Source of the DNA: an uncultured Bacilli bacterium | GTDB taxonomy: Bacteria > Bacillota_I > Bacilli_A > RF39 > UBA660 | Assembly: GCA_934098705.1 (NCBI GenBank) | Contig: CAKOPC010000003.1 | Span: 5,321 to 69,320 of the forward strand | Direction of reading: 5' to 3' | DNA length: 64,000 nt | Part shown: positions 28,468-41,893 of the stretch, piece after piece | Numbering within the stretch: the first letter of the stretch is position 1 | Layout: each line of letters starts with the position of its first letter | Notes under the pieces: generated by a model | The model's input: the letters and a program-made list of their open reading frames with translations, nothing else | What the model was told of the DNA's origin: nothing | The model's database searches: none | Position numbers and translations under genes: made by a program

Positions 28468-29025
28468 TTAAAATCTATTTTTATTATTATATATGTAATA
28501 CATTGGTTCGACTTTTTTAAACTTTAATCTTGGAATCAATGCTGTAAGTACGGAAATTGCTTTTCTTTGATCTAATGGTTTTTCTAAATAACCATCAAAA
28601 CCAATTACATTTATAAAATATTTGGTTTCGTTTCTTTCAACCGTTAATACAATTACCTTTATATCTTTTTTTATTTTTTTTACTGCTTTTAAAACTTCTT
28701 CTCCACTACCATTATTTGAATAAGTATTATTTGTGATAATTACATTATATTTATCTGGATTATCCATAAACTCTTGAATTAATGCTTCACAACTAGGAAC
28801 AATAGTTGTTTTGCAACCAAGACTTTCTAAGATGGAATTTGATATAATTGCCATTTGCTCATAATAATCGCCAAGTAACACTGACACTTTTTTACTTGGT
28901 TTATACTTATGTAAGTTATCAATTATCTCTTTACTTTTTTCATGTACTGTTTTATTATAAAAATACGAACTGATTTTATTCTCATTATATTTATTATTAC
29001 TTGAAACAATTTCGTTTTGATTCAT
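28468..29025 (-). CDS. Orphan receiver (REC)-like domain protein lacking an output domain; the phospho-acceptor Asp may be replaced
   Basis: CheY-like alpha/beta pattern (KVSVLLGDYYEQ...NVIITNN...KVIVLTVERN...GFDGYLEKP). Start at MNQNEIV (29025). Confidence 0.4.
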   Translation of the reverse strand: MNQNEIVSSNNKYNENKISSYFYNKTVHEKSKEIIDNLHKYKPSKKVSVLLGDYYEQMAIISNSILESLGCKTTIVPSCEALIQEFMDNPDKYNVIITNNTYSNNGSGEEVLKAVKKIKKDIKVIVLTVERNETKYFINVIGFDGYLEKPLDQRKAISVLTALIPRLKFKKVEPMYYIYNNKNRF

Positions 29026-29132
29026 AATTATCACCACATTTTGTATCAAAAATTTGATCTTTAAATAGTTGTTTAAAAGCGAAAAGCATAAGATCCTATA
29101 CAAGAAATATTATACTTTTTTTACCAAAAATG

Positions 29133-29175
29133 TCAACCGATTTCAGTAAACCTTCTACCGATTTCAGTAAATTTT
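29133..29175 (-). promoter_or_regulatory. Two tandem operator copies (CAACCGATTTCAGTAAACC / TTCTACCGATTTCAGTAAATT) upstream of the REC-like gene, adjacent to the small HTH gene
   Basis: Gene-strand reading TTTACTGAAATCGGTAGAAGGTTTACTGAAATCGGTTGACA-17bp-TATAAT. Confidence 0.5.
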
Positions 29176-29284
29176 ATATCAATACTTTAAATATTTTTTT
29201 TGTTTTCAGAAAAATTTATTGAAATCAAGAGATTTTTTTATTTTTTTTTTGATATAATTACATATAGACAAAGGAGGCCATAAT

Positions 29285-29524
29285 ATGTCTTTTACGCAGG
29301 CAATAATCAATAGAATACTTGAACTATGTGAAAAGAACCATATTACTCCAAATAAGTTATCAGAACTTTCCACTGTACCGGTAGCAACACTATTTGCGTT
29401 ACTAAATGATAAAGTAGAAAATCCTAGTTCCAGAAACATATATAAAATGTGTAAGGTTTTTGGGATAACTATGGCAGAGTTTTATGATACTGATATATTT
29501 AATCAAATGAATTTTACAAAATAA
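29285..29524 (+). CDS. Small XRE-family HTH protein (79 aa)
   Basis: HTH region ITPNKLSELSTVPVATLFALLN. AAAGGAGG RBS; own -10 TATAAT at ~29248. Confidence 0.55.
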   Translation: MSFTQAIINRILELCEKNHITPNKLSELSTVPVATLFALLNDKVENPSSRNIYKMCKVFGITMAEFYDTDIFNQMNFTK

Positions 29525-29589
29525 TTATTTATATCGCAACCAAAATGGTTGTTTTCTTTTTACATAATTTTTTTATTTTTTTAAACATT

Positions 29590-29625
29590 TTCTACCGATT
29601 TCAGTAAATACTGTGATATAATTTA
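29590..29625 (+). promoter_or_regulatory. Operator copy plus extended -10 promoter (TTCTACCGATTTCAGTAAATACTGTGATATAAT) driving a non-coding transcript
   Basis: Same operator-to--10 architecture as the other copies. Confidence 0.5.
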
Positions 29626-29775
29626 ATTGTAGAGGAAATACGGGCATTTAAGTTATAAAGATGGATATATAAGCGAAACCGCAACCTATTTTCCTCTGCA
29701 TCCCACTTTATGTTTTTCATTTAATCTACACACTCCTTTCTGAAAATGAGGCAAAAATGTCTCATTTTTGTTTTT
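29626..29775 (+). ncRNA. Candidate ~150-nt small RNA or orphan leader
   Basis: Lies between the operator promoter and an intrinsic terminator (AATGAG-gcaaaaatgt-CTCATT + TTTTGTTTTTT, 29737-29770). Contains a 10-bp closing stem AGAGGAAATA...TATTTTCCTCT. No ORF. Confidence 0.3.
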
Positions 29776-29832
29776 TATGTCATGTTAAACATAATGTTTT
29801 GTAAAAAAAAACTCTAAAGTAATTAAGTTATT

Positions 29833-29995
29833 TTAATACTTAATACTAAAAGTAGTTCCTTTTCCTTTTAAAGATTTCATAATAACTCTTCCATTATCCT
29901 TTTCTATTATTGCTTTTGCTAAAGATAATCCTATCTCATTACTATCATTATTAGAGTTTTTCCCTTTATAAAATCTTTTATTTTTATCTTGATGT
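29833..29995 (-). pseudogene. Remnant of the C-terminal ATP-binding (HATPase_c) end of a sensor histidine kinase
   Basis: Minus-strand translation ...KRFYKGKNSNNDSNEIGLSLAKAIIEKDNGRVIMKSLKGKGTTFSIKY* resembles the G2 box through the C-terminus of histidine kinases. In-frame stops follow immediately upstream. Confidence 0.4.
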
Positions 29996-30174: not shown

Positions 30175-30198
30175 TTTTTCCGTTTTCAGTAGAAAATT
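30175..30198 (-). promoter_or_regulatory. Operator copy oriented toward the histidine-kinase remnant
   Basis: Minus-strand reading TTCTACTGAAAACGGAAAAAATATGGTAAAAT (operator + extended -10). A degenerate half-site (GATATCAGTAAAT) also sits near the perR promoter at ~30225-30240. Confidence 0.45.
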
Positions 30199-30282
30199 AT
30201 TATTTATTTACATAAAAGTTTTTGATATCAGTAAATTATTATGATATATTATTAGTAATCATTACTATTAAGGAGGTAATTG

Positions 30283-41833: not shown

Positions 41834-41867
41834 TTCTTTCTCCTCTCCATATTTAAATTATATCATA

Positions 41868-41893
41868 CTTTTACCGAAATCAGTAAAAAAATT
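41868..41893 (-). promoter_or_regulatory. Operator copy plus extended -10 promoter upstream of the DUF4358-like gene
   Basis: Gene-strand reading TTACTGATTTCGGTAAAAGTATGATATAAT. Nearly identical to the tasA-like promoter, including the AAAAGTATGATATAAT tail. Confidence 0.5.

Follow-up and report, generated by a model that had tools for sequence, protein, structure and literature searches.

A predicted operator-controlled promoter without a gene beside an XRE regulator in RF39-like gut Bacilli

Organization and distribution of the locus

In the 64,000-nucleotide stretch of bacterial DNA analyzed here (the window), the gene for a 79-amino-acid (aa) XRE regulator is followed by a short unit, hereafter the orphan unit, in which a promoter and a terminator bracket a predicted noncoding transcript of ~148 nucleotides (nt). 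The orphan unit stands alone because the XRE gene has its own terminator upstream, which separates XRE transcription from the unit. The features of the region, with those elsewhere in the window to which they are compared, are as follows.

29134 to 29171: tandem pair of operators with copies spaced by 21 bp, located between the XRE gene and the receiver-domain gene that diverges from it
29285 to 29524, plus strand: gene for the 79-aa XRE (Cro/C1-type helix-turn-helix) regulator (Pfam HTH_26, 9e-9; HTH_3)
About 29536 to 29562, plus strand: the XRE gene's own intrinsic terminator, from the terminator scan (nucleotide diversity, pi, 0.024)
29587 to 29637, plus strand: promoter and 5'-end module of the orphan unit, a paralogue of the promoter and Shine-Dalgarno region of a DUF4358 gene (minus strand, ~41840 to 41890)
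29593 to 29606: operator pseudo-palindrome TACCGATTTCAGTA (TACCGA-TT-TCAGTA), centered ~30 nt upstream of the predicted start
29614 to 29622, plus strand: extended -10 element TGATATAAT, 10 nt downstream of the operator
29628 to 29638 paired with 29690 to 29700, plus strand: 5' hairpin of 11 uninterrupted bp that closes a 51-nt loop and holds AGAGGA in its 5' arm
29701 to 29741, plus strand: linker predicted from the folds to be unpaired, containing the CU-rich CUCCUUUC (29733 to 29740), the only candidate seed
About 29741 to 29776, plus strand: intrinsic terminator of the orphan unit, a 12- to 13-bp hairpin and U-run
29833 to 29985, minus strand: residual 3' end (~48 codons) of a histidine-kinase gene that converges on the orphan unit
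30171 to 30163, minus strand: promoter TGGTAAAAT, which serves the ABC/regulator/kinase operon that is deleted in the window
30178 to 30191: right-hand operator copy TTCCGTTTTCAGTA, at a minus-strand position 9 nt upstream of TGGTAAAAT
30222 to 30250, plus strand: perR-rubrerythrin promoter, arranged in the same way (TTGATATCAGTAAA-6 nt-TGATATATT)
41857 to 41885, minus strand: DUF4358-gene promoter, likewise arranged in the same way (TACTGATTTCGGTA-9 nt-TATAAT)

The closest solved relative of the XRE protein is prophage Lp1 protein 11 (PDB 3B7H, E = 2e-5). By its XRE gene, the window belongs to uncultured gut Bacilli, whose database entries include "Acholeplasma sp. CAG:878" and metagenome-assembled genomes labeled "uncultured Mollicutes/Tenericutes/Bacilli"; relatives carry the names "Clostridium sp. 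CAG:710" and "Mycoplasma sp. CAG:611." We take these organisms to be the RF39 group. Among species-level genomes, the XRE coding sequence is 97 to 100% identical in DNA (91 to 100% at third codon positions), its flanks are 78 to 95% identical, and the other neighboring genes are 91 to 98% identical. The uniformity of the XRE gene suggests either very strong constraint or recent recombinational spread. To the left of the gene, positions 28468 to 29103 encode a receiver-domain-only protein of ~185 to 211 aa that has no output domain. Its gene is driven by a perfect 12/12 sigma-70 promoter (TTGACA-16 nt-TATAAT; 29136 to 29109, minus strand), and the tandem operators are centered near -40 and -61 of this promoter.

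Only one clade of RF39-like gut Bacilli, a shallow and tight one, carries the orphan unit. The unit is present in all 10 of the same-species contigs, in 10 of the 17 species representatives whose XRE is at least 92% identical, and in ~20 further metagenome contigs, and it lies directly downstream of the XRE gene in almost all carriers (the exceptions are loci L068 and L075). It is absent from L020, L021, L022, L025, L035, and L036, as well as from every locus whose XRE is 90% identical or less; the XRE-bearing relatives without it are L011 to L022, L025, and L035 to L051. Damaged copies also occur: the promoter and the 5' arm of the unit are deleted in L026, the operator is deleted in L033, and in L056 the RNA is truncated and the -10 element is damaged.

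In most strains, the orphan unit faces an intact minus-strand operon encoding an ABC permease (816 aa), an OmpR-type regulator (216 aa), and a histidine kinase (a 402-aa HisKA/HATPase_c protein). A deletion in the window, L001, and L010 has left only the last ~48 codons of the kinase gene. The preliminary description of this DNA had correctly called the adjacent kinase a remnant, since positions 29833 to 29985 code for only the last ~48 of 402 aa. Its further proposal, that the unit was orphaned through decay of this gene, does not hold: the kinase gene is convergent and therefore cannot be the lost downstream gene of the unit, and the unit is unchanged with or without the deletion, being identical beside an intact kinase/regulator/ABC operon.

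The right-hand neighbor varies while the orphan unit ends exactly after its terminator (L003/L029, L064, and L076), and the whole variable insert lies between the operator copies at 29593 and 30178. Among close relatives, the region to the right of the XRE gene has at least five different neighbors, and operator copies coincide with the break-points of the rearrangements. L021 (4675 to 4800) contains a hybrid of the left and right operator copies, with everything between them missing, and L022 has unrelated DNA directly after the motif. In the low-coverage contigs L068 and L075, the upstream tandem operator is joined to the operator of the unit and the XRE gene is deleted; these junctions could be assembly artifacts. 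A BLAST search of positions 29100 to 29800 against phage and plasmid collections found nothing.

Operator sites, promoters, and the predicted XRE regulon

The operator of the orphan unit lies within the 17-mer CTACCGATTTCAGTAAA (29592 to 29608), of which further copies occur at 29134 to 29150 and 29155 to 29171 and a palindromic variant occurs at 41871. With up to 3 mismatches allowed, the 17-mer has 5 matches in the window against 0.16 expected, a number reached in none of 100 shuffles, and the degenerate palindrome TACYGA-N2-TCRGTA has 4 matches with up to 1 mismatch against 0.25 expected. Sites of the TACYGA-N2-TCRGTA form are located at 29134 to 29171, 29219 to 29228, 29593 to 29606, 30178 to 30191, 30222 to 30235, and 41872 to 41885, such that five promoters of the window besides that of the orphan unit carry the motif.

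No -35 element can be read in the promoter of the orphan unit, and transcription is predicted from the position of the -10 element to start at ~29629 to 29631. The extended -10 is kept in 26 of 27 haplotypes when harmless changes at -13 and -15 are allowed, and both the TATAAT hexamer and its upstream TG are conserved. Operator and -10 (of the form TG-n-TAnAAT) are spaced 9 to 11 nt apart at four promoters, and real genes or operons follow three of them. The palindrome thus overlaps a core promoter and recurs at others in the regulon, as a repressor operator of the XRE type is expected to do. The presence of an operator-controlled promoter at 29590 to 29625, as had been described from the sequence, is thereby supported by the above-chance recurrence of the motif and by TGATATAAT at 29614 to 29622. 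The same holds for the membership of the unit in a regulon, given that the same motif and geometry are found at promoters driving real genes.

The motif is very probably the operator of the 79-aa XRE protein, because it matches the palindrome found upstream of XRE orthologues. A palindrome of the CCGAWWTCGG type lies ~23 nt upstream of the -10 element in 17 of 18 XRE orthologue loci, these 17 ranging from 100% down to 51% identity; no such palindrome precedes the XRE gene of L051, whose product is 44% identical. These palindromes resemble ACCGAWWTCGGT, which the operator of the orphan unit matches, with examples being CAACCGATATCGGT in L015, L047, L049, and L050 and TACTGAATTCGGTA in L037 and L039. 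The window's own clade has a degenerate version, TTGAAATCAA (29219 to 29228). Across genomes, then, the operator occurs together with the regulator gene, in the position of an autoregulatory site. Distant XRE orthologues retain a perfect ACCGATATCGGT ~23 nt upstream of their own -10 elements. XRE binding, repression, and the ends of the transcript are matters that we infer from these signals.

The OmpR-type regulator of the adjacent two-component system was considered as the binding protein and rejected. The motif tracks the XRE gene, and diverged forms of it persist in outgroup loci (e.g., L011) that do not have this system adjacent.

On these grounds, the motif can be read as defining a small XRE regulon comprising the receiver-domain gene, the XRE gene, the orphan unit, the ABC/two-component operon, perR-rubrerythrin, and the DUF4358 operon. 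Two of these promoters are accompanied by elements of other kinds. Between the perR -10 and its Shine-Dalgarno sequence lies a perfect 7-1-7 palindrome, TAGTAAT-C-ATTACTA (30253 to 30267), which is kept in the outgroup L011 and is likely a PerR/Fur-type box. Downstream of the minus-strand operator and the TGGTAAAAT promoter is a leader of ~93 nt (30156 to 30064, minus strand), with a Shine-Dalgarno sequence, an 11-codon mini-ORF (MAILASCNREI, 30145 to 30110), and a long hairpin ending in U8 (-23.9 kcal/mol). The leader has no match in Rfam and resembles an attenuator of the leader-peptide/terminator type, which would belong to the ABC/regulator/kinase operon.

Origin, ends, and diversity of the transcribed body

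The promoter and the 5' end of the orphan unit resemble those of the DUF4358 gene. Local alignment of positions 29587 to 29637 with the DUF4358 module gives a score of 51, compared with 20 ± 2.8 (maximum, 30) in 500 shuffles, and the AGAGGA of the 5' helix arm occupies the place of the DUF4358 Shine-Dalgarno sequence. The RNA body itself shows no similarity to the body of the DUF4358 gene or to the minus-strand leader of the ABC operon, its similarity to the 5' region of perR is not significant (the score is reached by 16% of shuffles), and the rest of it resembles nothing else in the window or in the loci examined. In five lineages (L009, L029, L030, L064, and L076), the ACG that follows the Shine-Dalgarno-like AGAGGAAAT is ATG (equivalent to 29633 to 29651 of the window), which results in a 3-codon mini-ORF, MGI-stop, with proper Shine-Dalgarno spacing. 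This mini-ORF may be a vestige of the gene once served by the duplicated promoter.

There is no conserved coding capacity on either strand of the unit. The window has no plus-strand ORF of 30 aa or more from ~29629 on, in agreement with the earlier statement that the unit lacks an ORF. Two candidates were rejected as genes: a minus-strand ORF of 39 aa with a good Shine-Dalgarno sequence (29720 to 29601), which is reduced to 16 codons in most strains and frameshifted at codon 3 in five lineages, and a plus-strand ORF of the relatives, 47 codons long in the commonest allele, which is often broken and has no counterpart protein.

The terminator scan returned 2 terminators in 2.3 kb against 0.5 expected, one of them being the 12- to 13-bp hairpin and U-run that the preliminary description had placed at 29737 to 29770. 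Its G+C-containing stem (29742 to 29753 paired with 29758 to 29769) is maintained among the copies: all internal single-sided changes keep pairing through G-U, and breaks occur only at the two outermost, weak A-U/G-U pairs. Because the hairpin sits immediately beyond the point where the convergent kinase operon ends, it probably also terminates that operon, which may be why its stem is retained. By its sequence signals, the unit has what is expected of a small RNA (sRNA), i.e., its own promoter and a Rho-independent terminator around a short noncoding transcript.

The analysis does not support a structured body. The closing stem, originally given as 10 bp, is present and in fact comprises 11 uninterrupted bp, but it was not confirmed as exceeding chance, and with 3.7% of dinucleotide shuffles reaching an 11-bp helix, it is only marginally unusual. 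In the commonest allele, the body folds no more stably than its shuffles (z = -0.08); the z-scores for the window and for the L024 allele are -1.82 and -1.89, respectively. The inner GCG/CGC hairpin of the window is missing in the other strains, and internal helices are broken in several alleles. Within the 11-bp helix, 97% of cells stay paired across copies, and at least four disruptive substitutions arose independently, namely, G to A twice (in the L024 clade and in L033), C to A (L029), and U to A (L053).

Covariation is likewise not detected, in a test whose power is low because the copies are too alike (~92% identity): no pair of the 5' domain shows a compensatory change, the RNAalifold consensus has such a change in 0 of 31 pairs (covariation term, -0.18), and the helix and terminator together, in 28 sequences, have it in 1 of 23 pairs, with every covariation measure matched by shuffles. 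At gathering thresholds, Rfam 15 has no match in the 64-kb window, and nothing overlaps 29590 to 29775 even at E values up to 10. A covariance model built from 17 copies and searched over the window and 33 loci from relatives found no further or diverged copy, and the literature on RF39 small RNAs and on the palindrome yielded nothing relevant. The earlier depiction of a structured transcript is therefore not sustained by the fold stability, covariation, or family membership of the body, and two of the checks proposed for it, an Rfam/Infernal scan and a comparison of folds in related genomes, gave negative results. The RNA should not be catalogued as a structured noncoding RNA family.

Nucleotide diversity over 28 haplotypes separates the body from its signals. 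The operator has a pi of 0.028, compared with 0.14 to 0.19 in the flanking spacers, and the RNA body has a pi of 0.082, compared with 0.057 at the four-fold degenerate sites of the XRE gene. The body is 82 to 96% identical between genomes, which is comparable to the 3' end of the kinase gene (a pseudogene in the window) and to noncoding DNA, and lies below its coding neighbors at 91 to 98%. The longest invariant run in the body is not significant (P = 0.06). Selection is visible on the operator, the -10 element, and the terminator, and none is detectable on the RNA body, which is not detectably constrained.

Interpretation of the orphan unit

The reading to which we assign about half of our confidence is that the orphan unit is a gene-less relic of an XRE-gated promoter and leader and that its transcript is a by-product. 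An XRE dimer would bind TACCGA-N2-TCAGTA, with its center near -30, and thereby block a promoter that has no -35 element and would rely on its extended -10. Upon release of XRE, RNA polymerase would start near 29629 to 29631 and stop at the hairpin and U-run of 29742 to 29776, producing a noncoding RNA of ~148 nt. The promoter and the first ~10 transcribed bases would be a duplicate of the DUF4358 module, with AGAGGA in the orphan unit followed by no usable ORF. The functional core would probably be the XRE site at the DNA level and the terminator shared with the convergent ABC/two-component operon, and the RNA would probably arise as a side product or, at the most, be a newborn sRNA. Several observations count against a relic: the unit is kept beside the XRE gene, with its boundaries intact while the right flank changes, which could mean usefulness; the pi of the body (0.082) is below those of the T-rich spacer (0.142) and the upstream intergenic region (0.136); and the 11-bp helix is somewhat unusual in length and largely stays paired. 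Like orphan promoter/leader remnants in general, the unit combines a duplicated promoter and Shine-Dalgarno sequence without an ORF, a near-neutral body, a variable neighborhood, and decayed copies in relatives; unlike a simple remnant, it keeps an efficient terminator, a conserved operator, and a conserved -10, which is more order than needed.

The rival explanations give the unit a function that resides in its RNA, in its operator, or in a peptide. If it were a trans-acting sRNA of the XRE regulon, as had been suggested, the unpaired CUCCUUUC would pair with the ribosome-binding sites of targets and repress their translation. Membership in the regulon and the possession of a regulated promoter and strong terminator stand, and the lack of coding capacity on both strands, the retention of a discrete unit beside the XRE gene in many genomes, and predicted folds that leave an anti-Shine-Dalgarno stretch unpaired between the 5' and terminator hairpins are consistent with this function. 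The function itself we consider unlikely. Within the body, the linker varies most (pi, 0.098); the L024/L069/L073/L076 lineages have CUUC in place of the seed's CUCC, L070 has AUUC, and L028 has UCCC; and for the best duplex with any of the 94 translation-start regions of the window, 15% of shuffled seeds do as well, such that a conserved unpaired seed with complementary targets was not found among targets sought within the window. Moreover, the unit occurs in one shallow clade only, is lost or decayed in close relatives, and matches no Rfam family. An sRNA at birth, i.e., a duplicated XRE-controlled module that lost its gene in one genus-level clade and whose 148-nt RNA tunes translation in the regulon through the CU-rich linker or through a sequestered Shine-Dalgarno/anti-Shine-Dalgarno hairpin, is to our judgment a decidedly doubtful prospect. 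We regard as improbable, too, that the unit is only an auxiliary XRE site, engaged for example in looping with the tandem sites ~440 bp upstream, with a -10 that fires little or never. Conservation within the unit is highest at the operator, the XRE gene has operators on both sides, and L021, L022, and L011 carry an operator immediately after the XRE gene although they lack the unit; but the TATAAT and its upstream TG are conserved as well, the spacing between operator and -10 equals that in the promoters of real genes, and a near-consensus extended -10 normally suffices for initiation in low-GC Gram-positive bacteria.

There is only a small chance that the unit is a decaying small-protein gene, silenced by XRE and resembling a type I toxin. 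About half of the relatives have an ORF of 38 to 49 codons (most often 47 codons, MDISTKPQPIFLCIPIYVFHLIYTLLSENEATMPHFVLQKKKRLLSN) from an ATG equivalent to 29661. It is intact in L003 to L008, L023, L024, and L030, where it would encode one hydrophobic helix followed by a basic tail, and the 5' helix of the RNA hides the Shine-Dalgarno-like AGAGGA. But no Shine-Dalgarno sequence lies within 20 nt of the ATG, the ORF crosses the terminator hairpin and reaches its stop codon beyond the U-run, and it has been broken independently at least five times: by stop codons in the window (at codon 4) and in L002, by frameshifts at two positions, and by loss of the start codon in L026 and L029. Differences among intact copies are mostly nonsynonymous, and no counterpart was found among ~15 billion predicted proteins. 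The conserved hydrophobic ORF, ribosome-binding site, and stop codon inside the transcript that mark type I toxins are thus not seen here. Very unlikely is the reading as a riboswitch or cis-regulatory leader orphaned by loss of its downstream gene, the other option raised in the preliminary description and now largely refuted. A 5' stem around a multiloop is followed by a terminator, and the 5' end derives from a promoter and Shine-Dalgarno module that precedes a gene elsewhere, but none of more than 40 copies, in at least four right-hand contexts, has a co-oriented gene downstream; the next gene is the convergent kinase, which is intact in most strains, or is unrelated and variable. The internal helices are not conserved, Rfam has no match, and the terminator lies 41 nt past the stem with no evident alternative pairing. 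Nor is an aptamer fold backed by covariation or stability (z = -0.08 in the main allele), with the ~92% identity of the copies limiting the power of the comparison.

Base-pairing sRNAs under the control of transcription factors occur in the Bacillota, among them the Fur-regulated FsrA and the ResD/Rex-regulated RoxS/RsaE, and sRNAs of the FsrA/RoxS type are kept across genera and have invariant C-rich seeds and covarying stems. Like FsrA and RoxS/RsaE, the orphan unit has a stand-alone promoter under a repressor operator, a length in the range of ~100 to 200 nt, a 5' hairpin, an unpaired C/U-rich stretch, and a Rho-independent terminator; unlike them, it has a varying seed, nil covariation, a distribution limited to one shallow clade, and no Rfam family. 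The regulator and its sites resemble the Cro/CI circuits of phages and mobile elements in the small helix-turn-helix protein, the palindromes of ~6-bp half-sites over promoters, the several operators around the regulator's own gene, and the autoregulation that these imply. In contrast to phage Cro/CI circuits, the XRE locus is without phage or plasmid context, and the predicted regulon includes the chromosomal perR-rubrerythrin, DUF4358, and ABC/two-component operons. With type I toxin-antitoxin loci, the unit shares a short hydrophobic ORF in some alleles, a 5' structure that hides a Shine-Dalgarno-like sequence, and frequent inactivation, but its ORF is without a Shine-Dalgarno sequence and stops past the terminator, the encoded peptide is not conserved, and no antisense promoter can be recognized.

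On present evidence, the useful result is an operator motif that defines a small XRE regulon and whose copies lie at rearrangement break-points. If the RNA is functional, it would be a first candidate riboregulator for the uncultured RF39-like gut Bacilli and would illustrate how an sRNA is born from a duplicated promoter and leader.
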